Assembly (NCBI GenBank): GCA_964634445.1
Contig: CAZWJA010000003.1
Coordinates: 24,019 to 88,018, forward strand
DNA length: 64,000 nt
Origin: an uncultured Candidatus Saccharibacteria bacterium
Lineage (GTDB): Bacteria > Patescibacteriota > Saccharimonadia > Saccharimonadales > AWTP1-31
Direction: 5' to 3'
Shown here: one piece after another, positions 4,546 to 27,469 of the stretch
Position numbering within the stretch: position 1 is the stretch's first letter
How the letters are laid out: the number at the start of each line of letters is the position of its first letter
Notes under the pieces: generated by a model
Told to the model about the DNA's origin: nothing
Databases searched by the model: none
What the model saw: the letters and a program-made list of their open reading frames with translations, nothing else
Translations under genes and position numbers: made by a program

Positions 4546-4625
4546 CTAAACCTAAAACTTGCTGAACCTACCAGTAGCTACCAACTACCTACAATAATTA
4601 TAACTAATTAGTAGGAGTTACTTCT

Positions 4626-5309: not shown

Positions 5310-5863
5310 GCGAAGTTGTGACCGATAAAACCGAGACTGCACCGACAAAGGAAATGACCGCACAGGACGTGGTTGATGTTATTAAACTATGTGACGAAAA
5401 CGGTATAGAGGTCTACGTTGACGGTGGTTGGGGTGTGGACGCCTTACTTGGCGAACAAACACGAAAACACGGTGACCTAGATATTGCACTACCCCACATA
5501 CACGTACCAAAGTTAAGGGAGCTGCTTGAAGCAAAAGGCTATAAGGACGTCCCCCGTGACGACACAAGGGACTGCAATTTTGTGCTGGGTGATGATAAGG
5601 GACACGAGATTGATTTTCACTCATACACCTTTGACGAAAACGGTAAAAACGTGTTTGGAGTGGCTTACGAACCACGTCACTTAACAGGCACAGGGTCTAT
5701 AAATGGCTATGCCGTTAAGTGCATACCAGCAGACGTAATGGTTGAGTTTCATAGCGGTTATGAATTAGACCAAGATGACTATCACGATGTTAAAGCATTG
5801 TGTGACAGATTTGATATACCACTACCAGCAGAGTACGAAAAGTTTAAGACAGAGGGGGTGTAA
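5306..5863 (+). CDS. ANT(2'')-Ia-family (PF10706-like) nucleotidyltransferase
   Basis: VDGGWGVDALLGEQTRKHGDLDI closely parallels the ANT(2'')-Ia active-site stretch GGGWAIDARLGRVTRKHDDIDL, which I am recalling from memory. Size is about 185 aa. The GTG start overlaps the upstream stop (GTGA). Confidence 0.75.
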   Translation: MSEVVTDKTETAPTKEMTAQDVVDVIKLCDENGIEVYVDGGWGVDALLGEQTRKHGDLDIALPHIHVPKLRELLEAKGYKDVPRDDTRDCNFVLGDDKGHEIDFHSYTFDENGKNVFGVAYEPRHLTGTGSINGYAVKCIPADVMVEFHSGYELDQDDYHDVKALCDRFDIPLPAEYEKFKTEGV

Positions 5864-6519: not shown

Positions 6520-6521
6520 TT

Positions 6522-7256: not shown

Positions 7257-7696
7257 AAATCTTTGTAGCAGCGTCCTACTCGTCACAAGTTAATTATGAA
7301 ACTGGTGAGGTTTTTCCAGAATACAAGGAGTGGCTGGAAAGTACACTGGGAGTGATAGAAGCTCTTGGTCATACAGTCTTTTGTGCATTACGAGCAGACC
7401 AGTACAAAATCAACGACGCTGACCCAGCAGAAGCATTTAGCCTTGATATGGAACATATAGAGCAAAGTGACGTTTTACTGGCGTTGTTAAGCGATAAACC
7501 CTCTGCTGGTGTTCAGACCGAAATTGGGGTGGCGGTGGCACTCAAAAAGCAAGTACTGTTAGCCCATTTACCAGAACACGAACTTGCATACTTTAATGCT
7601 GCAATGGCAAAAGCAGGTGTTATAACCGAGCTTGAACTACCACTTACAGCAGAGGGAATTGGCAAAGTACTAAATGCCAGACAAGAAGCCTCGTAA
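7253..7696 (+). CDS. Nucleoside 2-deoxyribosyltransferase-fold protein (NDT-like), copy 1
   Basis: It opens with MKIFVAASY in the N-terminal strand and has SDVLLALL ... SAGVQTEIGVAVALKKQVLLA, the S.G...E.G.A.ALkK.v pattern of the NDT family. The ATGA overlaps the SDR stop. A paralog lies at 37464..37874. Confidence 0.55.
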   Translation: MKIFVAASYSSQVNYETGEVFPEYKEWLESTLGVIEALGHTVFCALRADQYKINDADPAEAFSLDMEHIEQSDVLLALLSDKPSAGVQTEIGVAVALKKQVLLAHLPEHELAYFNAAMAKAGVITELELPLTAEGIGKVLNARQEAS

Positions 7697-9515: not shown

Positions 9516-9534
9516 CCAACTGCGCCACACCCCG
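9458..9534 (-). tRNA. tRNA-Pro (anticodon UGG), CCA encoded
   Basis: Manual cloverleaf: acceptor CGGGGTG/CACCCCG, D arm GCGC-AGTTGGCTA-GCGC, anticodon arm GACGG-TTTGGGA-CCGTC, variable AGGTC, T arm GAAGG-TTCGAGT-CCTTT (one G.U pair), discriminator A, then CCA. Total 77 nt. Confidence 0.9.
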
Positions 9535-9571
9535 ATACCCGGGTAATTTTAACAGATTGAATGTTATTTTA

Positions 9572-10210
9572 CTATACCTCTATCTCTATGCTTTCCCCGT
9601 CAACGGGTCGGATAATTCTTGTGTCTGTATTCTTGAATACATCTTCAAGACGGTTATAGACATGGTTTCGCCATTCATCATTCCACATCCAATCGTGAAT
9701 CGGAATAATATACTTTGGCTTTAATTCCAGTCCTAATTCAAAAGCCCGGATAGTAGTACCCCATGGAGCTTGCACAGGTAGCAGTAAAACGTCTTTAGTT
9801 TCATTAAAATCATGGGTATCACCTGGACCTGTTACCTTGCCGAATATATTTACGATTAAGTTTTGGACTTGGACGCCAAAAGGAACGACTTTGGCATGGT
9901 CTACTGTCTTAACTTCAACTACATCTGTCGACTGGTCGCTGACGTTTATTACACCCAACGATTTAAGATCGTCAAAAGCATCAGCCGGGGCAAGCCACCG
10001 TACGTCTGGTTGTAGTTCGACAATTGCTTTTACGAATGGCTCACCAAGATGGTCGGCGTGTTTATGAGTCACAATAACAGCATCTAACTTAGGAAACTTG
10101 GAAACTTCTATTATACCGCTGTTCCAACTAAATATTCCCGGGTCAATTAGAATTACTTTTCCTGCCTCTTCAATTAAGACGCACGAATGGACTAGCTTTG
10201 TGATTTTCAT
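9572..10210 (-). CDS. MBL-fold metallo-hydrolase
   Basis: HxHxDH motif (VTHKHADHLG), an N-terminal beta-lactamase-fold pattern (KLVHSCVLIE) and a C-terminal His (IPIHDW). Confidence 0.8.
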   Translation of the reverse strand: MKITKLVHSCVLIEEAGKVILIDPGIFSWNSGIIEVSKFPKLDAVIVTHKHADHLGEPFVKAIVELQPDVRWLAPADAFDDLKSLGVINVSDQSTDVVEVKTVDHAKVVPFGVQVQNLIVNIFGKVTGPGDTHDFNETKDVLLLPVQAPWGTTIRAFELGLELKPKYIIPIHDWMWNDEWRNHVYNRLEDVFKNTDTRIIRPVDGESIEIEV

Positions 10211-10212
10211 AT

Positions 10213-10407
10213 CTAGTCTTTCCCAAAGGGGTTATCTCTAACTACCTGGCTGCCAATTCCAGCAATCATACCGAGCAAAAAGATAATGAAAGCAATTGTT
10301 AATTTGGCCAATATTGCGAAAACTATTCCAGTTGCTATCAATATTAGAGCTGAAGCTAGCAGCTGCTTGGCAAGGTTGGGTTTTGGAGGAATATCGAACT
10401 TTGCCAT
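10213..10407 (-). CDS. Small membrane protein
   Basis: 64 aa with two hydrophobic helices. It is tightly packed between its neighbours (2-nt gaps). Confidence 0.45.
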   Translation of the reverse strand: MAKFDIPPKPNLAKQLLASALILIATGIVFAILAKLTIAFIIFLLGMIAGIGSQVVRDNPFGKD

Positions 10408-12506: not shown

Positions 12507-12899
12507 TTACTTGCGCGGTTTTGTAATATGAACCGGTGCGCCGTATTCGGGTAATACCAGCTCGTCATTTTCGTTGTTCATGAGCGTGTCGATACCGTCT
12601 ATGGTCCAGTCGCTGCCGTTTGTGCCGACTATTGGAATATTGTTTTGGAAGGCAATAGTATTAGCCACACTTATACTGATTCGAAGTCCCGTAAAGCTGC
12701 CTGGACCTTTATAACAAATTATTCCGTCAATATCGCTCCAGGTTATCTTATGGCTATCTAGTAGTTTTTTAATTTTCAAGTGAATAGTCTCAGCTAGCTG
12801 CCTGTGTGCTTGCCACTTTTCATAAGCCAGCTTTTCCGTGTCATCAAATAGGCCTACTTCTGCTTCCGGTTTATCACCCCTAATAGTTAGTATTATCAT
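12507..12899 (-). CDS. tsaB: tRNA t6A37 biosynthesis protein TsaB (short form)
   Basis: The GPGSFTGLRISISVAN motif is present and tsaE is adjacent. At 130 aa it is shorter than the canonical ~230 aa. Confidence 0.7.
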   Translation of the reverse strand: MIILTIRGDKPEAEVGLFDDTEKLAYEKWQAHRQLAETIHLKIKKLLDSHKITWSDIDGIICYKGPGSFTGLRISISVANTIAFQNNIPIVGTNGSDWTIDGIDTLMNNENDELVLPEYGAPVHITKPRK

Positions 12900-13363
12900 T
12901 ATATTTCTTCCATTAAGTAGTTCAGATCTTGGGGAATTCTTATTGAAATCTCCCGATTATTTTCACCGGTTGATTTGATATTTACTTTTAGTCTACTGTC
13001 CGGCAATACGTCCTTAATTATATCGGCCCATTCAACCACTACGACCGCTTTAGGATCGGACAAGCCTTCTTCCAACTCGTGCCTGATTATTCCTGGATCG
13101 CTTAGTCGGTAAAAGTCGTAGTGGTAGATAGTCAGGTCTTTAGCTTTGTACTGCTTGCAGATCATAAAAGTCGGGCTAGCAACAATATCTTTGCTGCCAG
13201 CTCCTTTTGCCAGCCCCCTGACAAAAGTAGTCTTGCCGCCGCCGAGGTCGCTAGTAAGTTCAATGACTTCACCGCCGGTAAGCTTCCTGCCTAGTTTTTC
13301 ACCTAGGTTTTCGGATTCGTCTGAGCTTGTGGTAGAAATTGAATAAGTCTTGTCGGTATTCAT
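12899..13363 (-). CDS. tsaE: tRNA t6A37 ATPase TsaE
   Basis: P-loop [23 protein letters not shown] and the HYDFYRL motif. The start is moved to MNTDKTY (ATG at 13363). The track's 45 upstream codons overlap the preceding gene and look non-coding. Confidence 0.85.
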
Positions 13364-14564
13364 ATGCCCCGTATAGTACAGCCAAGCCGCCGACTCCTGC
13401 AAGTACCCCTGAATGCATAGTTGCCTTAGCTGGCAGATTTGTAGCATCGGATAGTACAGACCCCGCTTTCTTGGCCGCCTGCGATTTCTTACTGGCAACT
13501 TTTGGTTTTGCCTTGGTACTGGTTTTTGTTTTAGCCGCCTTATCAGTCTTAGCCTCTTTTGTGCTCGCGCCGACTAACGGTTCGCTGATTACATTAGCCG
13601 AGTTTGGTGTGACTGAAGAAGTCCATTTCCATGTGCCATTGTCCAACGCCCATGAGCTGCCGGCTGGTGCTGATGCATATCTGGAAGTTTCGAATGAGGC
13701 AGTGCCGTCCGGCCGAAGCAGTTTGGCTTTGCCCTCGGTGTTAGCCAAAGTAAGTTTTGTTTCGGTTATGTAATATGCATGGTACGAATTAGCAGCAATT
13801 TCCTGATCCTTGAAGGTAAAAGAATGGTTCAGTGTTGCACCAGTCATTAGCTTGTATCCAGTCAGCTTTACTGGTACGTCGTACGGGTTATATAGTTCAA
13901 TAAACTCGCCGTTTGCATCTGTTGCTGGCTTAGCCGGATGAGGCAAAAGCTCGCTAATTTCAATGTCGTAGATACCACTTCCAGAGATTAAATTCTCTGA
14001 TGGTATATTACCAGTTTCTATTAGCGTGAAATCAGCCGAATTATTCTGACTATTCACATAGTCTCCATTAGAGTCCTTATTCCTATTTAAAATCTGGCCA
14101 GGAGACATAGCAGACGCAGGAGTACCAAGCGGTTGCAAGGCAGTTCCCCAGCCGACTAGATCTTCTTGGGTAGAGCTAATATTTCTAACTAATCTGACCT
14201 GCCCGCCGGCTGCAGCTAATGTCGGACTAAAACTGAAGTTAGAACTAGAGGTCATATAACCACTGCTGGTAGCGGTAAGAAAAGACTTTGCTCCTATTAC
14301 CCCGCTAAGTAGAATAGTCCGGGTAGGCGAATTAAAATCCTTGGCTGTTGCCGGGTAATATTCCAATTTCCAACCGTTTAAATCTGTTGGACTTGATCCA
14401 GAATTATATATTTCAATAAATTCTTCGCTCGCCGAAGCAGAACTGCCAGCCTGAATTTTAGTAATTTTTAAGCCGGATGCTGCCTGAACATTACTGCCAG
14501 CTGCAAGCGATATACCTAAAACAATAGCAGTTAGCAGACCAATTACCCCTTTGACCCTCATCAT
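13299..14564 (-). CDS. Secreted, C-terminally anchored protein with two lamin-tail (LTD) domains
   Basis: It has a signal peptide. There are two LTD signatures ([20 protein letters not shown] and [20 protein letters not shown]). A K/A/T-rich linker and a C-terminal transmembrane helix ([15 protein letters not shown]) follow. Confidence 0.7.
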
Positions 14565-14687: not shown

Positions 14688-15905
14688 TTACTGATCATCT
14701 CGGAGAGCATCTACCGGACTAATTTTTTCAGCTCTACGCGCCGGAAAGTATGAAACACCTAGTCCTACTACAATCATGAATATGATCAAGATAATAGGTA
14801 ACCACCATGGCACTGAAATAATTGAAAAAGTCTCGTTAAAACCACGACGAGCTACAACAGTTTTCATAACTAGATTGATGAGTATGCCTCCAAAAACCGC
14901 TAATAATATACCTAGCATCGAGCCGATTACTGATAGCAGAATACTTTCATAGATAAATAATCTACGAATATCTCGGTTACGTACACCTAGTGCAATCATA
15001 AGTCCTATTTCTCTCGTTCTTTCAAGCAGTGAGATAGTTAAGGTATTAAACATTCCTAAAATAGCTACTAGCATACCAATTGACCCGAAGCCAATAAGTA
15101 TTATATTTATATAATTAAAAAGTTTACTGATTTGCTGAATAGTGTCTAATGGCGAAGTTGTTATAAAACCTAAACTTTCTATTTTGCTGCGTATTTCAGA
15201 AATATTATCTATATTATCAGCAACAACTTTTATTTGTGAATAATTTGTAACTTTATTAGCATCGAACAAACTACGAGGTATAAAAACCTCACTTCCACTT
15301 CCAGAATCGGTAACACCTATAACTTTGTATTTTTGAGAGACTTCCTGAACGGAATCAGCCTTTTCTATAAACACAATCAGTTCCATAGTCTTACCGATTG
15401 CTTGATCTGCTCCAATTCCAAGGATTTCTAATCCAGCACTATTAATTACTACTCTATCGGTCTCCTCATTAGCGAAAAACTTTCCTTTTATTAAGTCAAG
15501 ACTGGCAATTGAATGATACGATTCATCGACACCGTAAACTATAGTATCGGTTTCACTACCGTTTAGCTTTATGGTACCTGAACTATCAAAGCTGCCACCT
15601 ACATGATCGACGTTAGGTAGGTTTTTAATTTTTTCAGAATTTTGTTGATCAATTTTAATTATTGCCGAATTAGGACTTGTTACATCTAGAGTCTTGACAG
15701 ATTGACTCCCTATAATTTCATGAGTTACTAGATTTTGCAAGCCCAAACCAAGCGACAGTAGGAAAAATATTGAGCCTATGCCCACAGTCACACCGGCAAT
15801 TGTAAGGAGAGTACGAAGTTTTTTGAACTTCAGGTTACTCCAGGCCATAAAAAAGCTAATTTGCTTAGAAACTGCCGTAAAGGATTTTTTAAATTCGGGT
15901 TGCAT
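14688..15905 (-). CDS. ABC transporter permease, FtsX/MacB type
   Basis: N-terminal transmembrane helix, a large extracytoplasmic domain, then three C-terminal helices of the FtsX-like fold. Overlaps the ATPase gene by 17 nt. Confidence 0.85.
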   Translation of the reverse strand: MQPEFKKSFTAVSKQISFFMAWSNLKFKKLRTLLTIAGVTVGIGSIFFLLSLGLGLQNLVTHEIIGSQSVKTLDVTSPNSAIIKIDQQNSEKIKNLPNVDHVGGSFDSSGTIKLNGSETDTIVYGVDESYHSIASLDLIKGKFFANEETDRVVINSAGLEILGIGADQAIGKTMELIVFIEKADSVQEVSQKYKVIGVTDSGSGSEVFIPRSLFDANKVTNYSQIKVVADNIDNISEIRSKIESLGFITTSPLDTIQQISKLFNYINIILIGFGSIGMLVAILGMFNTLTISLLERTREIGLMIALGVRNRDIRRLFIYESILLSVIGSMLGILLAVFGGILINLVMKTVVARRGFNETFSIISVPWWLPIILIIFMIVVGLGVSYFPARRAEKISPVDALRDDQ

Positions 15906-16686
15906 GAGCCTTAACCTTTTCGAGTTCTCTTATTCTGTTTTTAGTTTCTTTTATTATCTTCCCAGTAAGAGACGATGTATCATCTTGGGATATATCTTCT
16001 ACTACTCCATTTTGAATACTAAGTAAGTGATCTGCAAAAGGTATATATTCCATGTTGTGCGTTACAAGAATAATAGTTCGGCGAAACTCTGTTTGGCAAT
16101 TCAGTAGCAGGCGCATAATAGAGTCTCCAGCAGGGGTATCTAAATTACCGGTCGGTTCATCTGCAATTAAAAATAATGGGTCATTTGCCAATGCTCGGGC
16201 CATTGCAATTCGTTGTTGCTCACCTCCAGATAATACAGACGGGAATTTATGAGCGTGTTCTGTCATTTGTACTCGGTCTAGCGCACTTATTGCTATTTTC
16301 GCAGATTTAGATCTAGAAAAACCTAAAGCATACAATGGAATTGCAACATTATCTAGCACGCTTAAGCTTTTGACCCAGTAGTTTGTCTGGTGTATAAAGC
16401 CGATACGATTCGCTCTAAAGTTTGATAATTCATCGTTAGTAAGTCTGTATAAATCATAACCTTGTACGTTTACTTTTCCGCTGGTTGGTCTTTGTAGTCC
16501 ACCGATGGTATTCAATAAAGTTGACTTTCCACTTCCAGATGGACCGTATATAATATTGAAACTATTAGATTTGATATTAAAATTAGCATTTTTTAGTGGA
16601 GTAATAATTTCTTCGCCAACATTGAAGTTGACACTAACATCTTCAATTTTTAATATAGTGGTTTTATCTATTATCCCACCGCTCAT
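15889..16686 (-). CDS. ABC transporter ATP-binding protein (MacB/LolD-like)
   Basis: Walker A GPSGSGKST, Q-loop, signature LSGGEQQRIAMARAL, Walker B LFLIADEPTGNLD and H-loop VTHN. Confidence 0.92.
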   Translation of the reverse strand: MSGGIIDKTTILKIEDVSVNFNVGEEIITPLKNANFNIKSNSFNIIYGPSGSGKSTLLNTIGGLQRPTSGKVNVQGYDLYRLTNDELSNFRANRIGFIHQTNYWVKSLSVLDNVAIPLYALGFSRSKSAKIAISALDRVQMTEHAHKFPSVLSGGEQQRIAMARALANDPLFLIADEPTGNLDTPAGDSIMRLLLNCQTEFRRTIILVTHNMEYIPFADHLLSIQNGVVEDISQDDTSSLTGKIIKETKNRIRELEKVKAHATRI

Positions 16687-16688
16687 AA

Positions 16689-19600
16689 TTAGAATCCAAA
16701 CACTTTCTGTAAGGTATTAATAACTATTGTAACTAGATTATCGGAAGCTCGACTGACTATTGCAGATTTTAATGTACCAGTAGATTTATTATTAGATCTG
16801 TCAGATGAAATAGGTGCAATGGTATAAACCGAAGATGTAGATAAATCAGAAATTATGACAATATGTTCCAAGACTCGCTCGAGATCCTCGCTTGATTTGT
16901 TGTTAAGCACTTTTAAGTTGCTTCCTTTGCCGTAAGCTACTTGGCTAGAAGCAAGTTCGTCGGTAGTCCAGGATACGATAACCTGTCCCCTGGCTTCTGC
17001 TCCAGACCCCTTTATCGATGATACGACTTTGAGATTTGATATCTTAGGTGGGCGTGTGTCTAGTTGCGTACGCAGAACATGAGAATCAGATATTGCCAGA
17101 TTGCCATCGCCATCTCGCGATTCAACTGCAAGTGAATATTCGGTATCATCTTCAAGCCCACGAATTACCATTTTGTGGTCTAAGGTTAGAGTAGAATCAT
17201 TCTGCTCATGTTTGGGCTTTGAGGCAGTCGTAAACCGAATCAGCGATGAGGCTGGTACATTAGTATTCCATGTAACTTCTTGGGTACTTGTTGGTTCCCC
17301 AGCAACTGGCTGGAAACGTAGATTCGATATTTTGGGACGGGCAGGCGTCGAAAAATTATCAATTCTAGGAACCTTATATTCATTTCCATCATTATCTACT
17401 GGATTAATTCCAAAATAGTACTTTGTACCATCTTCAAGGCCAGACAATTCGACTGTATAAGTTGAATTAGTAAGTGAAGTGTTTACGGTGTGAAGTCCAC
17501 CAAAGGCAGCAGATTTACCGTAATAAAGTTTTACATTTGATGCATTATCACTAGTGAACTCAATAATTGCCGTAGTCATTGTAACTCGCTTAACAGACAC
17601 TTCTTGGATAGATGGAGCCGGCATAGTAGTAAAGCTAAGTTCGCCGCTTGTTCCTACATTACCGTCTTCATCAGTCCATCGAGCACGGTAATAATAGGTA
17701 GTACCGGCGTCTAAATTTGAAAGTTCGATTCCATGGTTTTTTGTTTGCAGTGAGGCAGCGGCTTCAGTAGTGAAATATTTACCACTTGACGTACCATATT
17801 GTATACGGCTATCGCTGTTACGATCTGTCACCCAGGTAATGTTGGCATTTCGCGTGCTAACTGTAGTTGAAGGTTGGCTGATTAAATTAGCCGGTTCTGT
17901 GTACCTTCCAGTTGGTGTCATCGATACAATACTACTATATGCACCGCAATTATTAGCACTATCACACGCCCTAACTTTATAATAATAGTCAGCCTGAGTT
18001 AATCCACCCTCCACATGACTATTTCCTGCAGTAGATGCAACTTGAGAGAAATTAATTCCATCTGTCGATCGTGACAGCCTGTAATTGGCGACGCCAACAC
18101 CTGTATTCTGTGGTGCACTCCAAGAAAGCGCCAATCGCCAGGTACTAGTAGCCCTGGTAGAAACATCTGCAATCTCAATATCTTGCGGAATTCCAGGCGC
18201 AGATGTATTGGCAGTAAAAGTAGTGCTGGCGGCTGTGGCATAATTTACAGCCATAGTTTCATCGCGGGCAACTACATAAAATGTATTTTCTCCAGGTTGT
18301 GTAGCATATGGGCCTGCAACCAAATTTGTCGCACCAGGCTCAGTCCAGTTGCAAGTATTACTACTAGGCAGTGTATTGATTGTATAGCAGTACGTCAGAT
18401 TATTGGAATCACCCTGGAAAGATGCAGGCTGTACCCAAGAAAAGGCAAAGCTATTAGCTGAACTGTTAGACGGCGTAGCAGTGACATTCAAAGGACTACT
18501 CGCAGCTGACGAATTAAATTTTATGACAGTAGTGACATACGTAGTGCTGACATTTCCCGCACCGTCCCAAGTCCTAAAAAATACCACATTATTTCCTTCA
18601 ATGATGGCGTCATAATCTTCAGGATCAACTGTAATATAGGTGCCATCATTCGCTAAAAGATCGCTGGTATCTTGGTTGCCATTATGCGATTCGCCATACC
18701 AAGTCCCGTTGTTTCCGATGCGGTATTGCAAACCTTCTAAACCGGAATGATTATCACTGGCTGCATTACTGCCTGCTGTTGGCCAAGTTAGCGTCACTTC
18801 CTTATTGCCTACAAATTGAGAAGGTGCCGTTATGTAATCTGGATTATTCGGAGGAGTATTATCAAATCTAAAGTGGAATTGGGCGCTATCTTCATCGTAA
18901 ATGTTATGGGCATTATCAATTGCCTTAATTCTCAGATAATATGCGTCCGAGGAACTGATTAAGGCTGATCCAAGATATCCAGACACAGCAGTATCAATAT
19001 AGTTTGTACCTACAGCATATGGACAGCTGCCAGAGGTATCTAATGGGCTTGTCCCCAGACTGCCTTTTGTCATCACTGGATCTGCTGTCTGATCCGTTCC
19101 TAGATATAAACAGTATCCTTTGATTCCGGTTCCTATGTCTTCACCGGCTGTCCATTCAAAAAACGGAGAATTACCATTTGTCCAAGAATTTTCCGTTATA
19201 TTATCACCACCAGCTGATTTCTTCATGCTAATATCAGAAGCATTAGTTTCTGGAGCTACATTATCGTATGGTGAATATTCAACGCTAATATCTTCAAATA
19301 AAGGCGTTTGACCATCTTCCCCTACTAGCGTAACTTCATACTGTATGTAACGATGGTTTTCAGTTACGCACGATTGGCCAGTAATGTCAGTACCGCTTGT
19401 AACTGGTGCACATCCAGCAAAAGCCGGAGTACCGGACATATCTGCATTGTTGCTACTTCGTACTTTAACACTCGCACTACCCGCACCAGACTTTACATAT
19501 GCTAAGTTACCCCACGCAGAGCCGTGATCGGTATCCATGATGCCCGATACTAGAGTGCCAGAACCGTATGTTTTTAGCGATAAGTTATCAACGTAAACTG

Positions 19601-21086
19601 TTTTATTTGCCCCAACCTGCAAACCATATTTTTTTTCAGTAGTAGTGCCAGTTACGGTTGATTGGAGCTTGTACCAACCAGAACCTACGTCTGTATAGTT
19701 AGTAGTGACTGTAGAAGATCCCACATATAGTGATGCATCATTACTTGTAACTGCGCTGCCGTTAGTATAGACATACGCTTCGAGGATATGCTGATTTGTG
19801 TTTCCAAGATTTTTAGATTGAGTTAGTCTTCCAATAGAGGTCGTGTCTATTCTGCCTGATGCAGCAGAGTTCTGAGACTGCTGAGTTGAACGTATAAAAG
19901 TATCCCTAATGTTCATGAATATTGATAACAGATTATTGTTATATTCAGAGGTGACTAAATCTAAATCCCCATCATCGTCGACATCACTTAACTGAGGATT
20001 TACACTAGCACTTCCTGTAGCTAAATCAACTTTGGCCGCAAATGTACCATTTCCGTTATTTCTAAGTATTGATGTAGTACTGGAATTTTGGTTGTTTGTA
20101 ACAATATCAAGATGTCCATCAAGATCAATATCACCTATAGAAACAGTTTCTGGCGTATTACCCACAGTATACGGTGTACGTGCTGCAAATGTACCATTTC
20201 CGTTGTTCATTAAAACAGAAATTGTAGCTGCGGTAGTATAGTTAGATACTGCTAAATCCAAATCTCCGTCACCATCAAGATCGGCTGCATTTATACCATA
20301 TGCACCGCCGGCCGCATAGTCTACTCTGGCAGCAAATGTACCATTGCCATTATTCTTAAAAATAGAGATAGAGCCGGTGCCATAGTTTGCTACTGCTAAA
20401 TCCAAATCTCCGTCACCATCAAGATCGGCATTGGTAAGGAACCGAGGGCTACTGCCTGCAATATAATCTGTTTTGGCAGCAAATGTTCCATCACCATTGT
20501 TTTTTAGAACCGATAAAGTATCAACAAAATAATTTGTAGTTGTAATATCGATATCTCCGTCACCATCTAAGTCACCTAGCGTAACGATTTGGGGATAATT
20601 CCCTGTGGAATAATCTGTTTTTGCACTAAACGTCCCGTTGCCATTATTTTTAATAACAGAAACGTTATGACCTAGCAAATTTGTAGTTACAGCATCCAAA
20701 TCTCCGTCACCATCAAGATCTTTGGCTTTTATATCATAAGGTTTTGTCCCCACACCGTAATCCGTTTTAGTACTGAATGATCCGTTTCCAATATTCTTGA
20801 GTACCGAAATAGTATTTGCATTGTAATTAGCTGATATGTAATCAAGGTCTCCGTCTCCGTCCAAATCTCCTAGGAAATTGTTCTGAGGATTAGTGCCTGT
20901 AGAATAACTATTCTTAGACCCAAATGAAATTGGGTTACCTGCTTCAAAATTCCAACTATTTGTATTTTCTTCAAATCCATTATTTGTTAGATGCTCTTCG
21001 GGACTAATGCTGAACGAGCCATCCCCAACATCTATATTAGTTTTTTCTGAAAACTGATTGATAGCATTACTACCCTGCCCCCCCAC
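16689..21086 (-). CDS. Giant surface protein body: ~7 FG-GAP/VCBS repeats plus multiple fibronectin-III-like domains
   Basis: The N-terminal part repeats DLDGDGDLD ... NNGNGTFAAKTDY about every 48 aa. The C-terminal half contains FN3-like/PAP-N-like modules (e.g. RIQYGTSSGKY...TTYYYRARWTDEDGN). The track gives a GTG start inside a G7 tract. It is probably one gene with 21070..21450. Confidence 0.85.
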   Translation of the reverse strand: MGGQGSNAINQFSEKTNIDVGDGSFSISPEEHLTNNGFEENTNSWNFEAGNPISFGSKNSYSTGTNPQNNFLGDLDGDGDLDYISANYNANTISVLKNIGNGSFSTKTDYGVGTKPYDIKAKDLDGDGDLDAVTTNLLGHNVSVIKNNGNGTFSAKTDYSTGNYPQIVTLGDLDGDGDIDITTTNYFVDTLSVLKNNGDGTFAAKTDYIAGSSPRFLTNADLDGDGDLDLAVANYGTGSISIFKNNGNGTFAARVDYAAGGAYGINAADLDGDGDLDLAVSNYTTAATISVLMNNGNGTFAARTPYTVGNTPETVSIGDIDLDGHLDIVTNNQNSSTTSILRNNGNGTFAAKVDLATGSASVNPQLSDVDDDGDLDLVTSEYNNNLLSIFMNIRDTFIRSTQQSQNSAASGRIDTTSIGRLTQSKNLGNTNQHILEAYVYTNGSAVTSNDASLYVGSSTVTTNYTDVGSGWYKLQSTVTGTTTEKKYGLQVGANKTVYVDNLSLKTYGSGTLVSGIMDTDHGSAWGNLAYVKSGAGSASVKVRSSNNADMSGTPAFAGCAPVTSGTDITGQSCVTENHRYIQYEVTLVGEDGQTPLFEDISVEYSPYDNVAPETNASDISMKKSAGGDNITENSWTNGNSPFFEWTAGEDIGTGIKGYCLYLGTDQTADPVMTKGSLGTSPLDTSGSCPYAVGTNYIDTAVSGYLGSALISSSDAYYLRIKAIDNAHNIYDEDSAQFHFRFDNTPPNNPDYITAPSQFVGNKEVTLTWPTAGSNAASDNHSGLEGLQYRIGNNGTWYGESHNGNQDTSDLLANDGTYITVDPEDYDAIIEGNNVVFFRTWDGAGNVSTTYVTTVIKFNSSAASSPLNVTATPSNSSANSFAFSWVQPASFQGDSNNLTYCYTINTLPSSNTCNWTEPGATNLVAGPYATQPGENTFYVVARDETMAVNYATAASTTFTANTSAPGIPQDIEIADVSTRATSTWRLALSWSAPQNTGVGVANYRLSRSTDGINFSQVASTAGNSHVEGGLTQADYYYKVRACDSANNCGAYSSIVSMTPTGRYTEPANLISQPSTTVSTRNANITWVTDRNSDSRIQYGTSSGKYFTTEAAASLQTKNHGIELSNLDAGTTYYYRARWTDEDGNVGTSGELSFTTMPAPSIQEVSVKRVTMTTAIIEFTSDNASNVKLYYGKSAAFGGLHTVNTSLTNSTYTVELSGLEDGTKYYFGINPVDNDGNEYKVPRIDNFSTPARPKISNLRFQPVAGEPTSTQEVTWNTNVPASSLIRFTTASKPKHEQNDSTLTLDHKMVIRGLEDDTEYSLAVESRDGDGNLAISDSHVLRTQLDTRPPKISNLKVVSSIKGSGAEARGQVIVSWTTDELASSQVAYGKGSNLKVLNNKSSEDLERVLEHIVIISDLSTSSVYTIAPISSDRSNNKSTGTLKSAIVSRASDNLVTIVINTLQKVFGF

Positions 21087-21450
21087 TCCAATCAGTTTGG
21101 CTCCATGTACTTAAGGCAGATACATTTGAGGTTTTAGTTATAAATACGATCGCAACAATAAAAATCCATGCAGCAGCTAAAAACCCATGCACATGACCGT
21201 GATGAACGCCTCTGTAATTCCAGCTATGCCACCATAAATAATGTTTGGATTTTGCCATCAAATATTCGTGGGGTTTTTGCGCAGAATGATGGTGCAAAAT
21301 CTTATATAATTTATTGGACTTTGGACGAATTGAACTAACTAAATAGTGCTGTAGTTTATTTAAGATCTTTGCTAGTTTATAATAATAAAATAATAACTTT
21401 CTAATATTGTTGTAGGAAATCTGGACTAACTTAAGAAAGATCTTTTTCAT
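21070..21450 (-). CDS. N-terminal His-rich/transmembrane-anchor fragment of the giant surface protein (separated by a frameshift)
   Basis: Basic and His-rich leader, a transmembrane helix FLAAAWIFIVAIVFI, ending ...WSQTDWSGGAG* at the G7 tract. Overlaps the downstream ORF by 17 nt in another frame. Confidence 0.6.
   Translation of the reverse strand: MKKIFLKLVQISYNNIRKLLFYYYKLAKILNKLQHYLVSSIRPKSNKLYKILHHHSAQKPHEYLMAKSKHYLWWHSWNYRGVHHGHVHGFLAAAWIFIVAIVFITKTSNVSALSTWSQTDWSGGAG
21078..21084 (-). repeat. G7 homopolymer (C7 on + strand) at the frame break of the giant surface protein gene
   Basis: The coding strand reads ACT GAT TGG AGT GGG GGG GCA GGG TAG. Removing one G gives ...TDWSGGQGSNAINQF..., which fuses the two ORFs in frame. 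Confidence 0.8.
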
Positions 21451-21655
21451 ATTAGGGTTCAGCTAACAATTATTAGATGATAGAGTGCTTTTTTTGATAC
21501 AAATTAACATCCAAAAGTTCTCCTATTAATAAATGCTAATGTCTATATAATACCAGAAATTAAACCTTATTAAATTATATTGTAGATAATAGATGCATGT
21601 GGTCATGTAAGCTTCTTCCTAGACGAATTAAGAATAGGCAACGTATACTTAAGTA

Positions 21656-22186
21656 ATGCTGATATTGAGCAAGATGGTATTAAACAGAAAAGTCATGAGT
21701 CTGAGAACCGGACGAGAGATTGCTGTTGCCCATGAAGCGATTATTAACCCGAACAATTTAAAGATCGAAGGCTTTCACTGTACTGATTCGCTTAGCCGCG
21801 AACACCTGATACTACTGTCGCAGGATATCCGAGATGTATTGCCAGCCGGCCTGGTTGTAAATGACCATAGCGTTCTAAGCGAACCGGACGATCTTATTAG
21901 ACTCAAGAAAACCATTCAGATGAATTTTGAATTAATAGGCAAGCCGGTATATACCAAATCAAAGAAAAAACTTGGCAAAGTAAATGATTTTGCAACCGAA
22001 CCGCAAAGCCTGCTGATCAAGAAAATATATGTTTCCCAAAGCCTGCTTAAAAGCTTGACCGGGTCAAGTTTAAGTATCGACAGAACCCAGATTATTGAGA
22101 TCACTAGCAAGAAGATAATTGTCCAAGATCCACTCCAGTTGGTTCCAGCTAATGCCCCGGCTCTAAACCCGACACCAGCTTCCTAA
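21656..22186 (+). CDS. PRC-barrel-like domain protein (two repeats)
   Basis: VMSLRTGREIAVAHEAIINPNNLKIEGFHC and a second module, LIGKPVYTKSKKKLGKVNDFATEPQSLLIKKIYV, resemble YlmC/YmxH-type PRC barrels. The exact start is uncertain. Confidence 0.5.
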   Translation: MLILSKMVLNRKVMSLRTGREIAVAHEAIINPNNLKIEGFHCTDSLSREHLILLSQDIRDVLPAGLVVNDHSVLSEPDDLIRLKKTIQMNFELIGKPVYTKSKKKLGKVNDFATEPQSLLIKKIYVSQSLLKSLTGSSLSIDRTQIIEITSKKIIVQDPLQLVPANAPALNPTPAS

Positions 22187-22190: not shown

Positions 22191-22805
22191 TTATTCCTGG
22201 GTATAGTCGATTTCTTCTAATACGTCTTTTACATCGCCGTAGTTGTAACCCTGACGAATAAGATAGGCCATGAGCTTTTGCTTGTCCTGATAGCGGCTTT
22301 GCTGCTGTTTTCGTTCGATTAGACCTTTTAGCAGTTCTTTTTCGTCCGTCTCATCTTCTGCCAGTACCTGCTTGATTATGTCATCACTAACTCGTTTGGC
22401 TCTAAGTTCCTGCTGTAAACGCCGCTTGCTGGTAGTTTTTAGCAGTCTTCTGTTGTCTACCCATTTGCGAGCGAAAACTGAATCATCCAGCCAGCTATGT
22501 TGATACAGCTTTGCTACCAGCTGGTCGATTAGTTCAGGATCGTAGTCTTTGCGTTTTAGGTATTCCCTAATTTCCCATTCGCTTCTGACTCTGCGAACAA
22601 TTAGATTCAGTGCCCGATTATAAGCCTTATCAAACTTTGCGGTATCTTTAAGCTCGTCTAATTCCTGATTGCTCAACTCCTGCCCAACACGCAGTCCGCT
22701 GACTAGCAGGGCATTTTCACTTAGGCCAAAAGTAAACTTGCCGTCTACAAATATTGAATACCTACCAGCTGTTTTAACCTGCTGCTTGATATCCGTTATT
22801 TGCAT
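22191..22805 (-). CDS. recX: RecA regulator RecX
   Basis: N-terminal ...GRYSIFVDGKFTFGLSENAL followed by repeated three-helix modules (ALNLIVRRVRSEWEIREYL...). Located in the recA operon. Confidence 0.78.
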   Translation of the reverse strand: MQITDIKQQVKTAGRYSIFVDGKFTFGLSENALLVSGLRVGQELSNQELDELKDTAKFDKAYNRALNLIVRRVRSEWEIREYLKRKDYDPELIDQLVAKLYQHSWLDDSVFARKWVDNRRLLKTTSKRRLQQELRAKRVSDDIIKQVLAEDETDEKELLKGLIERKQQQSRYQDKQKLMAYLIRQGYNYGDVKDVLEEIDYTQE

Positions 22806-22810
22806 TTCAA

Positions 22811-23086
22811 CTACACACTAGCATCTGGAATAAAGATCCCATCCCGCCCATTTGCAACCGGTGTATACGGAAATAATCCGACTCGTACAACTTCTCGGAC
22901 TAATCCGCTAAAACCAGGAACTAAGCGGTCTAAAGAGTCCTTATTAACTAAGACATTTTTTTCGACTTCTTCCAGTAGCATATATGCGGGAAATGGAGGT
23001 AATTCTTCGGCAACATAAAACAAAGCTTCTAGGTCTTCCTGTTCGGGTGCGAAAGTAAATGTCCCTTTTAGTCTTTCAATTGCCAT
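22811..23086 (-). CDS. Hypothetical protein between recA and recX
   Basis: 91-aa ORF with 9-nt and 5-nt gaps to recA and recX. No recognisable motif. Confidence 0.5.
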   Translation of the reverse strand: MAIERLKGTFTFAPEQEDLEALFYVAEELPPFPAYMLLEEVEKNVLVNKDSLDRLVPGFSGLVREVVRVGLFPYTPVANGRDGIFIPDASV

Positions 23087-23095
23087 CTTTACTAT

Positions 23096-24139
23096 TTACT
23101 CCTTGCTCTTAGCAGTTTCGCTAACCTTCTTAGCTATCTCACTTAGTACTTTTGGATTTTCTTCTAAGTATTTCTTGGTTGCTTCGCGACCCTGTCCGAT
23201 CTTGTTATCGTTATATGCGAACCAAGCACCTGATTTGTCGACAATCTCGTTCTCGACTGCTAGATCCAAGACATCTCCGCTTCGGCTGATGCCTTCGTTA
23301 TACATAATATCGAATTCGGCTTGTCTAAAAGGCGGAGCTATCTTATTCTTGACCACCTTTACTCTCGTCCTGTTGCCGATAATATTATCGCCGGCTTTGA
23401 TCTGAGCAATTCTTCTAATGTCCATGCGAACGGATGCGTAGAATTTCAAAGCGTTTCCACCGGTTGTAGTCTCGGGGTTGCCGAACATGACGCCGATCTT
23501 CATTCTGATCTGGTTGATAAACACAACAGTTGCCTTGCTCCGGCTGATTACCCCTGTCAGCTTCCTCAGCGCCTGGCTCATGAGCCTAGCTTGCAGACCC
23601 ATATGACTGTCGCCCATCTCGCCTTCTATTTCAGCTCGCGGCACTAGCGCGGCGACTGAGTCGACAACGATAATATCGACAGCGTTACTCCGGACTAGTG
23701 TTTCGGTAATTTCAAGTGCTTGCTCGCCGTTATCCGGCTGGGACAATAGCAGGTTTTCGACGTCCACACCGATTCTTTTGGCATATGACGGGTCAAGCGC
23801 GTGCTCAGCATCGATAAAAGCGGCTGTGCCACAGTTTCTTTGTACTTCTGCAATTGCATGCAGGCTGAGTGTAGTTTTACCACTTGATTCCGGTCCATAG
23901 ATTTCAATGATCCGGCCTTTTGGTATTCCGCCGCCGAGAGCCAAGTCTAAGCTTAGGCTGCCGGTAGAAATACACTCGACTTTAGTTTCGACTGAGTCGC
24001 CGAGCTTCATGATCGAGCCTTTACCGAACTGTTTCTCGATCGTATCCAACGCCAGACTAAGAGCTTTAGTCTTGCCGGATTCGTTGGTCGGAATCTCCTG
24101 CGGTACTTTAGTTGGTGCTTTAGTAGATTTGTTTGCCAT
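23096..24139 (-). CDS. recA: Recombinase RecA
   Basis: Matches the RecA sequence along its whole length: [17 protein letters not shown], the FIDAEHALD motif, VVDSVAAL and [10 protein letters not shown]. Confidence 0.97.
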
Positions 24140-24278
24140 GGTTCCTCCTTATAAAAACTATGTTTATGCTTTATGCACGGCGTTTGGCAAATGCCTTGCA
24201 GACAAAAGTGTATACCAACAATATAAATATGTATATGAAAAATGTCTGTCTAATTTCGTACACATCTGTTATTTTATT

Positions 24279-24292
24279 CTTAACGCGTTAAG
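24279..24292. promoter_or_regulatory. Perfect 14-bp palindrome CTTAACGCGTTAAG in the recA/pilB divergent intergenic region
   Basis: Read directly from the sequence. Only its position suggests an operator; no known box is matched. Confidence 0.3.
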
Positions 24293-24412
24293 TTATTGTA
24301 TTAATTTGTACAGCGTTTCTTTGCCCGATTACAATTAAGGATGATAATTTAACCGTTAAACCTTAGCCGGATATCTTTATACTTTATTCTTTCTCCATTA
24401 TACTAATGCTTA

Positions 24413-26224
24413 ATGCGCATACCAGATGCACTAGTAATACAGCTATTGAAAAATATCGGCCGGCTCACTGACGAGCAGGTTAATACTCTGCATGAGCAAG
24501 AAAAAGTCGAGAAGAAACCGCTTCAGGATCTGGTAATAAAAAACCAGGTCACAACCGAACCAGAACTTACAAAGCTGTACGCTTTAGAAATTGATGTACC
24601 GTACGTTGAATTTGACCCGAAGAAAATTAGACCGGAACTATTAAAGCTTATCCCTGAGAGAATCGCCCGGCAGTACAAAGTAATTGTGTTTGGCAAGGCA
24701 GAAGACGGCAGTATTAATCTGGCCATGGCCGACCCTGATGATATTCAGGCAATCAACTTCTTGCGCAAACAACTGGGCACCAACATTAAGGTGAATATCA
24801 CTACCCAGTCGATCATAAACGTGGCGCTTGACCAGTATCGCGGCAACATATCGACAGAACTTACAAAAGTAATCTCAACTACCGAAGCCGAACAGCCGGA
24901 AGAAGAGCAGGTCAATGCCGAAGACCTGGCTGAGAACTCTCCTATAGCTCAGACCGTAAACTTACTGATTGAATATGCGGTCAAATCCAACGCCAGCGAC
25001 ATCCATATCGAGCCTCGGGAAAACTTCGTCCTTATCCGCTACCGAATTGATGGAATTCTAAGGGAAGCCAACAAATTGCCTAAGAAAATGCTAGGTGCGC
25101 TTGTATCGAGAATTAAAATCCTGTCTAATCTAAAGATTGACGAACGCCGGTCTCCTCAGGATGGCCGGTTCAAGATAGAAGTCAGCGGGCAAGTCTATGC
25201 ACTGCGTGTGTCTACCCTGCCGATTGTCGACGGCGAGAAAGTGGCTATGCGTATTTTGAACGAATCAGCTAAGCCGGCAACTTTGGAAGAATTGGGATTC
25301 TGGGGAACTTCACTGTCCTATATGAACAAAGCTATTGTCCAACCGCACGGTATGATACTGGTTACCGGACCGACCGGATCCGGCAAGTCTACCACATTGT
25401 TTAGCGTCCTAAGCCTGCTAAACAAACCATCAGTCAACATTTCGACAGTAGAAGACCCAGTCGAATACCGGGTTCCCGGCACCAACCAGATCCAGGTCAA
25501 TGTCCAAGCTAATATGACCTTTGTAAACGGGCTGAGGGCACTGCTAAGACAGGACCCGAACATCATAATGGTCGGTGAGATTAGGGACTCAGAAACTGCC
25601 AACCTAGCCGTCCAGGCTGCCCTGACCGGACACTTGGTTTTCTCAACCCTGCACACAAACAATGCCGCAACTTCCCTGCCTCGCTTGCTCGACATGCAGA
25701 TTGAGCCGTTTTTAATTGCCAGCACAGTCAGAGCTGTTGTCGGGCAAAGGTTAGTCCGCAAGCTTTGTGCCGACTGCCGAATCTCCTATCAGCCGGATGA
25801 ACCGACTAAGAAACAGTTAAGTGAAATCTTCCATACTGATGACCCGGCTGTCATGAAACATATCAACGAACTCGAAATCATAGCCGGCCAAAGCGGCATC
25901 GGAAAATCTGTAGCCAAGGACGGATCTGTCAACAATATGGCCCTGGGCAGTGACGTACAAAGCGTCAAGACAATGTGGAAAGCCAATGAAGCCGGCTGCG
26001 AAGTCTGTGGGCATACCGGTTATCGAGGACGAATGGGTATTTATGAGGTCCTGGCCAACTCGCCGGATGTCCAGAAAATGATCGTCAACAGCGATACTTC
26101 AGAAAACATACAGATTCAGGCCATTAAGCAGGGCATGGTCCCAATGCAGATTGACGGCTTTATTAAAGCCCTACGCGGTCAGACAACGATCGAAGAGATA
26201 CTAAGAGTAACCAGTGAAGAATAA
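24413..26224 (+). CDS. pilB: Type IV pilus assembly ATPase PilB (GspE family)
   Basis: Contains a T2SSE N-terminal domain, Walker A GPTGSGKSTT, Asp/His boxes and a tetracysteine motif (CADC ... CEVCGHTGYRGR). Confidence 0.92.
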   Translation: MRIPDALVIQLLKNIGRLTDEQVNTLHEQEKVEKKPLQDLVIKNQVTTEPELTKLYALEIDVPYVEFDPKKIRPELLKLIPERIARQYKVIVFGKAEDGSINLAMADPDDIQAINFLRKQLGTNIKVNITTQSIINVALDQYRGNISTELTKVISTTEAEQPEEEQVNAEDLAENSPIAQTVNLLIEYAVKSNASDIHIEPRENFVLIRYRIDGILREANKLPKKMLGALVSRIKILSNLKIDERRSPQDGRFKIEVSGQVYALRVSTLPIVDGEKVAMRILNESAKPATLEELGFWGTSLSYMNKAIVQPHGMILVTGPTGSGKSTTLFSVLSLLNKPSVNISTVEDPVEYRVPGTNQIQVNVQANMTFVNGLRALLRQDPNIIMVGEIRDSETANLAVQAALTGHLVFSTLHTNNAATSLPRLLDMQIEPFLIASTVRAVVGQRLVRKLCADCRISYQPDEPTKKQLSEIFHTDDPAVMKHINELEIIAGQSGIGKSVAKDGSVNNMALGSDVQSVKTMWKANEAGCEVCGHTGYRGRMGIYEVLANSPDVQKMIVNSDTSENIQIQAIKQGMVPMQIDGFIKALRGQTTIEEILRVTSEE

Positions 26225-26248
26225 TATGAATATTGCGGATAATAAATA

Positions 26249-27469
26249 ATGCAGTTTATGTATATCGCCACTGACAAGTCTGGTGCTACTGTTCATGGCA
26301 GGCTGGAAGCTGCCAACCAGGATTCGGCGATCAAGAACCTCCACGCTCAGAATATGCGCCCCCTGATCATCAAAAAGATATCCGGCAATAAATTTACCCT
26401 AGCTTTTACAAAAACCAAAAAAGTAAAGACCAAGGACTTGGTTATCTTCACCCGCCAGTTGTCGACCATGGTCTCGGCTGGCGTACCTTTAAATAAATCT
26501 CTGGCGACGCTGCAGACCCAGGCTGAAACTAAATATTTCAAAGAAGTCATTGGCACGATTGCCAAAGACGTCCAATCGGGCAACCAGCTTGGCAGCTCGT
26601 TCGCTAAATTCCCGAATATATTTTCTGACGTTTACGTCAATATGGTTATCGCTGGTGAAGCCGGAGGAATACTCGACGAAATCCTAAAACGTCTGGCTGC
26701 CCAGGTGGAACAGGAATCTTCCATGCGCAAGAAGATAAAATCGGCCATGATGTACCCGATGGTAATCCTGTCGATAACAGTTGTAGCTTTCTTCGGCATC
26801 ATGATCTTCATCATTCCTAAAATTGCCAAGATTTTAAACGATTTAGCTGGTCCGGACGCCCAGCTGCCACTACTAACTCGGATAATGGTCGGTATCAGTA
26901 GCTTCATGCAGAGCTACGCAATATTCTTAATAATAGCTATTTCAGCTATTATCTGGTTCTTGAAACGCTACATTAATACTCCCGGTGGCAAGCTTAAATA
27001 CCACAGACTGCTACTTAGAGTACCTTACGTCAAAGTCCTGATCACAAAAGTAGCTGTCGCCCGGTTCAGCCGGACGTTTGCCGCTTTAATGTCCGCCGGT
27101 GTGAACGTCCTGGACGCGCTGGAAGTAACCGGCGGAGCAATGGGTAATCTTGTGATCGAGAATGAGCTTAAAGAGGCCAGTAAGAACGTCAAGAACGGCC
27201 GGCCGCTCAGCGAGCCGATTTCGGCTAGCAAGCATTTTCCACCAATTGTCGGCCAGATGATTGCCGTCGGCGAGGAAACCGGTCAGATTGACGTAATTCT
27301 AGTGAAAGTTGCCGACTTTTATGAAGAAGATGTGACAGTCCAGATTGAAACTATTAGCTCATTTATCGAACCGTTTATGATAATTTTCTTAGGTTCTGCC
27401 GTCGGCCTAATTGCCGCTAGCGTCATGGGCCCAATTGCTTCCCTAAGCAAAAACGTCGGAAATCAGTAA
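26249..27469 (+). CDS. pilC: Type IV pilus platform protein PilC (GspF family)
   Basis: Two T2SSF repeats (FTRQLSTMVSAGVPL and FSRTFAALMSAGVNV), three transmembrane segments and about 400 aa. Confidence 0.9.
   Translation: MQFMYIATDKSGATVHGRLEAANQDSAIKNLHAQNMRPLIIKKISGNKFTLAFTKTKKVKTKDLVIFTRQLSTMVSAGVPLNKSLATLQTQAETKYFKEVIGTIAKDVQSGNQLGSSFAKFPNIFSDVYVNMVIAGEAGGILDEILKRLAAQVEQESSMRKKIKSAMMYPMVILSITVVAFFGIMIFIIPKIAKILNDLAGPDAQLPLLTRIMVGISSFMQSYAIFLIIAISAIIWFLKRYINTPGGKLKYHRLLLRVPYVKVLITKVAVARFSRTFAALMSAGVNVLDALEVTGGAMGNLVIENELKEASKNVKNGRPLSEPISASKHFPPIVGQMIAVGEETGQIDVILVKVADFYEEDVTVQIETISSFIEPFMIIFLGSAVGLIAASVMGPIASLSKNVGNQ

Follow-up and report, generated by a model that had tools for sequence, protein, structure and literature searches.

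The window analysed here is a stretch of 64,000 nucleotides (nt) from an uncultured Candidatus Saccharibacteria bacterium (GenBank assembly GCA_964634445.1, contig CAZWJA010000003.1, positions 24,019 to 88,018 of the forward strand). Its minus strand carries a gene for a giant, surface-type protein, which comparison with relatives shows to be interrupted by a single extra base at or beside a run of seven G residues (G7). Two open reading frames (ORFs) result, a short 5′ fragment (the stub) and a long body. They overlap in different frames around the G7 run at 21078–21084, as the initial annotation of this DNA had noticed. That annotation had also taken the organism for a member of the Candidate Phyla Radiation (CPR), and the taxonomy of the relatives found agrees, placing it in the Saccharibacteria. 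The interrupted gene comprises the following features.

16689–21450, minus strand: the whole gene as it stands in relatives, 1,586 amino acids (aa) after removal of one base
21450–21070, minus strand: 5′ fragment ORF of 126 aa, with its ATG at 21450 and a premature TAG at 21070–21072, ending ...STWSQTDWSGGAG and stop
21086–16689, minus strand: body ORF of 1,465 codons, free of internal stops, in another frame and overlapping the stub ORF at the G7 run
21078–21084, minus strand: G7 homopolymer (C7 on the plus strand), made up of the two invariant Gly codons of W-x-Q-T-D-W-S-G-G and one extra G
21070–21084, minus strand: interval that must hold the extra base, since orthologues match the 126-aa frame upstream of it and the body frame downstream

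On the minus strand the junction reads ...CAA ACT GAT TGG AGT GGG GGG GCA GGG TAG, and the 126-aa ORF closes with the residues ...WSQTDWSGGAG. The body frame reads G GGG GGG CAG GGT AGT where the stub frame reads GGG GGG GCA GGG TAG. With one G deleted, the frame is open throughout 1,586 aa and reads ...TDWSGGQGSNAINQF...; the continuous product foreseen in the initial annotation is therefore real as a reading frame, at this length rather than at about 1,590 aa. The tract occupies codons 123–125 of the 1,586, inside the 5′ coding region, and its length sets the reading frame. For this gene the frame is kept by G6 and G9 and lost with G5, G7 and G8. Judged from the alignment, removal of any single base between 21084 and about 21072 restores the frame, and the run is simply the most mutable candidate. 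Deletion in the run gives GGQGS, deletion in the GGGT that follows gives GGAGS, and the family consensus accommodates both. The run at 21078–21084 is most probably where the insertion occurred.

By itself the G7 run is unremarkable; what is not chance is that it falls exactly where the two frames of a gene unbroken in relatives meet. GGG is the rarest Gly codon (10%), and GGG-GGG accounts for one of 70 Gly-Gly pairs, which is about chance level; the existence of the tract can therefore be explained without selection. No other G or C homopolymer of seven or more occurs in the 64 kb, and only one of six. Runs of exactly five number 13, against about 39 (five or more) expected from base composition. 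G/C homopolymers are thus depleted about three-fold in the window, while A and T runs of up to eight are common. Such a depletion is compatible with mutable runs of G or C being selected against in a genome devoid of mismatch repair.

In relatives the two parts form one gene. The five closest database proteins have 1,547–1,617 aa and 47–56% identity, with 97–100% coverage of the repaired protein. The named full-length orthologues P0003, P0004, P0005 and P0007 measure 1,603, 1,580, 1,547 and 1,617 aa. The family has two N-terminal subtypes, marked by W.QTDWSGG and DL.D.W(N/D)FS, and complete orthologues of the first (WSGG) subtype are 44–55% identical to the repaired protein over its full length, the best segment per locus reaching 42–58%. 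All full-length relatives hold the His-rich N-terminal region, the hydrophobic segment and the motif W-(T/N/S)-Q-(T/S)-(D/N)-W-S-G-G-x-G in a single frame. Their Gly-Gly pair at the junction is encoded by mixed codons (GGC GGC, GGT GGA and similar) and contains no run. In total about 45 relatives, all of them Saccharibacteria, are continuous across the junction. When one genome per species was scanned for relatives, 80 loci were obtained; nearly all bear the label Saccharibacteria or Saccharimonadia, one that of Nomurabacteria and a few only 'bacterium' or 'Patescibacteria group'. Among 47 related loci with the N-terminal domain, all but a few keep the frame open for more than 1,000 codons. 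Three exceptions are scaffold gaps; others are broken elsewhere, L019, L027 and L065 at sites distant from homopolymers. With the 126-aa ORF as query, 1.84 billion representatives were searched free of filters; of the 23 proteins retrieved, only the window's own ORF ends at the junction.

The alternative, one gene for a small membrane protein beside a second for a 1,465-aa protein translated separately from a GTG, is almost certainly wrong. The ORF finder does list a GTG start overlapping the run, with a GGAG just upstream, and the initial annotation had reported this GTG; it is listed merely as the first start codon that the finder met. However, GGAG directly abuts the GTG, at a spacing of about 1 nt, and the body has no export signal, its maximum Kyte–Doolittle hydropathy being 1.3 with no hydrophobic segment, against 2.36 in the stub. 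With one base taken out, the orthologue alignment is unbroken over the junction. Orthologues that are continuous through the junction and are followed by the same transporter genes refute the two-gene reading. Two genes would also have been indicated by orthologues that lack the homopolymer and keep a separate upstream gene, a test proposed at the outset. Orthologues that lack the homopolymer proved to be fused, with no separate upstream gene, and the original reading of one interrupted gene stands. No terminator-like site was found between the 126-aa fragment and the body.

At these same codons the frame is also lost in two more members of the family. One of them, L013, is a syntenic orthologue with about 45% aa identity, in which TGG GAC GGG GGG G AG TGG contains a G7. 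Removal of one G gives WDGGSGTSTTNQYDS, joined to an ORF of 1,491 codons. In a neighbour-joining tree the window groups with L006, L005 and L004, and L013 with L009 and L008. All of these relatives are intact and lack the run, and on this tree the G7 tracts of the window and of L013 therefore arose independently. Tract length also differs between strains of the L013 species. Three assemblies (L013, L169 and L170) carry G7, and two (L165 and L166) carry G8. A search with the L013 N-terminus brought up these stubs: beside the genome assembly that holds L013, the G7 stub comes from Logan runs SRR11567520 and SRR12900980, in contigs 100% identical to L013, and the G8 stub from runs SRR14932559 and SRR14932523. 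At least two runs show each length, which argues against read error. Between the G7 and G8 strains, a stretch of about 4.9 kb that takes in four upstream genes, the stub and the body's first 1.6 kb contains no mismatch. Across 8.9 kb the tract is their one indel, all other homopolymers being equal in length. Because the length varies where these flanks stay identical, sequence comparison marks the tract as a hypermutable repeat: it shifts faster than thousands of flanking bases.

The 148 differences between the G7 and G8 strains are confined to two recombined patches. In the comparison of L169 with L165 these lie at about 5000–6000 and at 8000–8859 of L169, with 46 differences (42 synonymous) in about 1 kb of the giant gene and about 99 in the ATP-binding cassette (ABC) ATPase gene (dS 0.51). 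Such sharply bounded patches indicate recent homologous recombination with divergent donors. For this pair of strains the ratio of non-synonymous to synonymous substitution (dN/dS) is 0.03, which was considered as a sign of purifying selection after the frameshift. This argument was rejected, as the 46 differences all fall in one recombined patch of about 1 kb and record donor history.

The sister species L167/L168 (runs SRR12350681/2) carries an in-frame G6 at the site, kept at about 82% nt identity although flanking synonymous sites have changed. Both of its loci show a frameshift at a non-repetitive site in the FG-GAP propeller (L167 nt about 1975–1996, the same in L168), found in two runs of one study. 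The second out-of-frame member, L079, has TCG GGG GGG GGA, a G9 that is out of frame in that gene; L086 and L140 are 100% identical to it and add no independent allele. This paralogue-type member has an in-frame TAA at nt 930–932, in the hydrophobic segment, where its relative L130 has Ile. The G9 follows 100 nt downstream, at 1028–1036, and an ORF of 1,924 codons is still open past both lesions. L130 itself carries a G7 in frame. Overall, runs of at least six G have arisen at the site in three of 18 lineages, where codon usage predicts 0.41 (P about 0.008; 0.06 with the window left out), a post hoc comparison on small numbers.

The initial annotation had offered two explanations for the split, a sequencing or assembly error and a phase-variation switch. 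An artefact, with a true sequence of G6 and an intact gene, appears improbable. It would suit a tract that is the longest, and hence most error-prone, G/C homopolymer of the window, in an ORF otherwise perfect. Nevertheless, a second assembly, Logan contig SRR8893623_974980, is 100% identical to window positions 20400–22178 (1,779 bp), including the G7 and four other homopolymers. In related Saccharibacteria loci totalling 843 kb, G6/C6 runs number 59, and there are ten G7 runs and a single G9. Of these 11 G/C runs of seven or more, eight, all of them G7, are in frame within long ORFs, which argues against systematic mis-assembly of G7 in comparable loci of metagenome-assembled genomes (MAGs). 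A word-indexed search of 5.8 billion proteins with the repaired N-terminus found only the window's stub and no G6 or G8 version. The reproducible out-of-frame lengths of the L013 orthologue, each present in two or three separate runs, speak in the same direction. Five places in the window where ORFs overlap suspiciously each proved to hold two separate genes, none of them frameshifted; further frameshifts at 12899–14564, 45712–47104, 42426–43989 and 37911–38760 were rejected on this ground. The extra base is probably present in the DNA of the dominant population. One further argument, that the absence of intact G6 beside three broken tracts excludes random error, was weakened by a metagenome pattern scan. 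The scan yielded at least 80 loci, mostly chance matches, and showed that in-frame G6–G8 is common at the motif. Among the matches listed, it occurs in many other secreted proteins and in family member L130.

We consider that the window carries a real +1 G allele, generated by slipped-strand mispairing at a hypermutable tract, and that the gene is currently OFF (probability about 0.75). In mechanism the tract would be an ON/OFF switch worked by mutation and found in its OFF state. Short runs of G or C become hot spots for insertions and deletions where mismatch repair is missing. Here the out-of-frame alleles are all expansions, G6 to G7, G7 to G8 and G8 to G9. A phylum-wide study of gene content found neither MutS nor MutL in Saccharibacteria (PMC8406219). 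Short poly-G tracts (G8) of Campylobacter jejuni mutate mainly by insertion (PMC3401435), a bias that matches the OFF alleles seen here. The proposed mechanism is as follows. (i) The invariant Gly codons are GGG GGG in this genome, and slippage during replication would add one G (G6 to G7). (ii) The slip would go uncorrected in a lineage reported to lack MutS and MutL. (iii) Translation from the ATG at 21450 would halt at the TAG at 21070 after 126 residues. (iv) The remaining 1,462 codons would be out of frame, the body being either untranslated or initiated internally and, with no signal of its own, not exportable. (v) The surface protein would be absent, and the gene OFF, until a compensating slip in which one G is lost or two are gained; the change would in this way be reversible. 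(vi) The premature stop, 4.4 kb upstream of the tightly coupled transporter genes, might conceivably lower their expression as well.

Several observations weigh against a slippage allele. A G7 lies at the lower limit of tracts usually called phase-variable, and the 64 kb contain no second long G/C tract, hence no sign of a genome-wide set. The closest orthologues are without the tract, which is not conserved in the clade and whose presence fits codon-usage chance. In the protein collections searched, neither the window nor the L013 species has an ON allele. For the window organism the only length on record is G7, in the MAG and in Logan, and run SRR8893623 possibly represents the same data as the MAG, in which case it would be no independent sample. 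The indel can also formally be placed in the next GGG or in the T instead of in the G run.

Given a slippage allele, its biological meaning can be read in more than one way. The choice between error and switch in the initial annotation left out a third option, loss of function on the way to a pseudogene, which is about as likely as the switch because the family carries other lesions. Of the two readings that it did name, error has become the less likely, given the Logan G7 and the in-frame G7 runs elsewhere; the switch has gained comparative support from the L013 orthologue, while the window itself is known as G7 only. Plain loss of function is quite possible, if short of probable. The gene would be dispensable or redundant, the G6 its most mutable site and the slip the first lesion of a young pseudogene, with later changes neutral. 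Ordinary lesions in the family support this view: the in-frame TAA beside the G9 of L079, the non-repeat frameshift of L167/L168 and the breaks in L019, L027 and L065 away from homopolymers. Some genomes also hold paralogues, such as the tandem pair of L002, the window and L013 strains show only OFF alleles, and the tract needs no selection to exist. Yet a pseudogene would be expected to show several independent lesions, whereas the window gene has one and its body aligns end to end with orthologues. With a single lesion in 4.8 kb, here as in L013/L165, any decay must be very recent. Tracts of G6 and longer elsewhere in the same genes are unaffected, and the gene and its operon are conserved across Saccharibacteria.

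An evolved contingency locus, giving useful stochastic ON/OFF expression of the giant protein, is a slightly more tentative reading, with host attachment, host range and escape from host or phage recognition as suggested uses. The tract lies about 10 codons past the signal or anchor, a classic position for such switches. The L013 clade presents a series of G6, G7 and G8, near-clonal strains differ in length only by G7 versus G8, and L167/L168 have retained G6 through the synonymous change around it. The recurrence in three of 18 lineages, the missing MutS and MutL and the fully open downstream ORFs (1,465, 1,491 and 1,924 codons) point the same way, as does the fact that the three tracts at the site are all out of frame, against eight in-frame G7 runs elsewhere. 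On the other hand, the recurrence statistics are small-sample and post hoc, and a mixture of ON and OFF is seen in no single population, the window and L013-species alleles being all OFF. The window's nearest relatives lack the tract, the 64 kb hold a single long one, and ordinary decay also occurs in the family.

Recoding is very unlikely: some full-length protein would arise either by +1 slippage of tRNA-Gly on GGG GGG G or by stuttering of RNA polymerase. The P-site tRNA-Gly could re-pair perfectly in the +1 frame on G7, the body ORFs are open in all frameshifted alleles, and a bypass would make the OFF consensus lengths harmless; stuttering could serve both G7 and G8. Against this, the frameshift is not conserved, the nearest orthologues being in frame without a run, and G7 and G8 require different shifts. 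The shift codon is followed by no slow or stop codon (GCA GGG comes next, then TAG), and in the three frameshifted genes the 0-frame stop comes at varying distances downstream (2, 9 and 34 codons). Around the site there is no Rfam element, and folding shows no RNA structure in excess of shuffled sequence (z = 0.27). Known frameshifts rescued by slippage use A/T runs of nine or more.

The slippage allele shares its mechanism with the poly-G contingency loci of C. jejuni, Neisseria and Helicobacter, of which it would be a candidate member. In C. jejuni a G tract in the 5′ coding region of a surface-structure gene likewise sets the frame by its length, in the absence of functional mismatch repair (PMC3401435; PMC4965091), and G/C tracts of seven or more are treated as phase-variable candidates (PMC4965091). 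That species, however, has about 29 loci per genome, a modal length of G9 and measured switching rates, whereas the window has one tract in 64 kb, and the window and its orthologues, with G6–G9, are known from sequence alone. Neisseria pilC carries its poly-G, of about G11–G14, in the signal-peptide coding region, and its switching has been shown experimentally. It resembles the present gene in that the G run falls within or beside the codons of the signal sequence, in a large surface protein of the adhesin type, and in that slippage leaves a short N-terminal stub as the OFF product. It differs in its longer tracts and in the mismatch repair that Neisseria possesses, and there is no sequence relationship. 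Poly(A) frameshifts in Buchnera and Blochmannia are reportedly rescued by transcriptional slippage. These are also symbionts with reduced genomes, in which otherwise intact genes have out-of-frame homopolymers in the consensus genome. Their A/T runs of about 9–11 are conserved between species, in contrast to the G7 of the window, which is absent from the closest orthologues. In the prfB (RF2) system a +1 shift is likewise needed and the P-site tRNA could re-pair; the window has neither a conserved site nor an A-site stop codon nor a consistently placed Shine–Dalgarno-like stimulator. By its sequence features the window locus is not a programmed frameshift.

Searches of the literature found no report of simple-sequence phase variation or of homopolymeric tracts in Saccharibacteria or other CPR bacteria. 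It is possible, though doubtful, that Saccharibacteria lacking MutS and MutL use short post-signal poly-G tracts as switches for the giant FG-GAP and fibronectin type III (FN3) protein and its MacB-type operon, with at least three independent origins and toggling among G6, G7 and G8. If true, simple-sequence phase variation would here be described for the first time in a CPR episymbiont, and it would affect a candidate host-interaction protein. A tract that switches would give these episymbionts simple, heritable and reversible variation of a huge surface protein. That protein would then be a candidate determinant of attachment, of host range and of visibility to host defences and phages, and the loss of mismatch repair in Saccharibacteria would have functional consequences at short homopolymers. 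If only decay or error is at work, the locus is an ordinary frameshifted gene. For annotation, the two ORFs should be recorded as one frameshifted gene, as should the pairs of small membrane protein and giant protein in L013, L165 and L079.

The protein itself has the following parts, all encoded on the minus strand.

21187–21297, minus strand: conserved His-rich N-terminal region, residues 52–88
21139–21186, minus strand: the only strongly hydrophobic segment (hydropathy), residues 89–104
21109–21123, minus strand: A-x-S motif VSALS
21079–21105, minus strand: WSQTDWSGG
about 19911–20909, minus strand: predicted seven-blade FG-GAP/VCBS propeller, with seven DxDxDG motifs at a spacing of about 49 residues
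19260–19910, minus strand: all-beta region of about 215 residues with no Pfam match
16692–19259, minus strand: FN3 and purple-acid-phosphatase-N-like repeats and a conserved C-terminal tail (Pfam, alignment)

Residues H61, Y71, W74, H75, H84, H86, H88, W116, Q118, W121 and G124 are invariant in orthologues. Ahead of the hydrophobic segment, both N-terminal subtypes share the His/Trp motif HHxxAxxPHxYLMxxSxxYxxWHxWxYxxxHHxHVH, in which H61, H75, H84, H86 and H88 are the invariant histidines. This motif has no Pfam match and might bind metal. The initial annotation described the N-terminus as a membrane anchor. Its hydrophobic segment is present; as the alignment places an A-x-S/A motif ahead of the W motif in all relatives, the supposed anchor may instead be a signal peptide that is cleaved off and whose cytoplasmic part, conserved and rich in His, is unusually long. 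The motif W-x-Q-T-D-W-S-G-G-x-G also directly follows the signal peptides of unlike secreted proteins, on metagenome contigs of 36–63% G+C. In such carriers (L094, L096/L131, L113/L138, L133, L160, L107 and L121) it is often encoded with an in-frame G6–G8.

In the body, Pfam detects six FG-GAP_3 matches, FN3 domains and FN3-like domains of the purple-acid-phosphatase-N type. The scores are 154.8 bits for FG-GAP_3 (cut-off 26.9), 58.2 for FG-GAP, 62.3 for Pur_ac_phosph_N and 43.4 for fn3. The seven regular DxDxDG motifs suggest a seven-blade FG-GAP/VCBS propeller. Neither the middle region nor the stretch of 126 aa at the N-terminus has a match in Pfam. For 19260–19910, AlphaFold run on the single sequence gives an all-beta model with a predicted local distance difference test (pLDDT) score of 50.8, which was not taken to a fold search. 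The body thus resembles surface proteins built from FG-GAP/VCBS and FN3 domains (PF13517, PF01839, PF00041, PF16656), which it matches above the cut-offs. It differs from them in features that belong to no described family, namely the conserved His-rich N-terminus, the middle beta domain, the W-x-Q-T-D-W-S-G-G motif and a constant association with MacB-type genes. Literature on FG-GAP proteins or on the TDWSGG motif in Saccharibacteria or CPR yielded nothing relevant. The label 'adhesin-like' given at first agrees with these surface-type domains; domain content and the export signal suggest a surface location and a putative adhesin role. The C-terminal tail, ...ASD(S/N)(V/L)(I/V)xIV(L/I)NxLxx(I/V)FG(F/Y) at 16692–16760 on the minus strand, is conserved in all orthologues and its terminal residue is aromatic. 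A tail of this kind is uncommon in a bacterium presumed to have a single membrane (monoderm); it could act as a sorting or interaction signal.

Transporter genes follow the giant gene, and a weak promoter-like match precedes it.

15889–16686, minus strand: ABC transporter ATPase (Pfam ABC_tran, 2.3e-29), starting 3 nt past the giant-gene stop
14688–15905, minus strand: MacB-type permease (Pfam MacB_PCD, 9e-21, and FtsX, 1.1e-20), overlapping the ATPase gene
21579–21606, minus strand: weak match to a sigma-70-like promoter (9/12 consensus positions), ahead of the ATG at 21450

Such promoter matches are fewer than in shuffled sequence, and this one is not evidence of function. The giant gene, the ATPase gene and the permease gene are co-oriented and keep the same order in L002/L003, L004, L013, L165 and L169. 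Stop and start codons touch or overlap along the series, at 14688–21450 in the window and likewise in L002, L004, L013, L165 and L169. This arrangement points to a three-gene operon conserved across Saccharibacteria. With an ABC_tran ATPase and a MacB_PCD/FtsX permease adjoining the giant gene, it resembles operons of MacB-type (type VII) ABC transporters. In L002 two giant-protein paralogues stand in tandem (598–5457 and 5545–10356; 1,619 and 1,603 aa) upstream of a single ABC transporter pair. On the other side of the gene, the neighbours at 22191–27469 are recX, recA, a type IV pilus/type II secretion system ATPase (PilB-like, 24413–26224) and then a 406-aa ORF, a context typical of surface machinery in Saccharibacteria.

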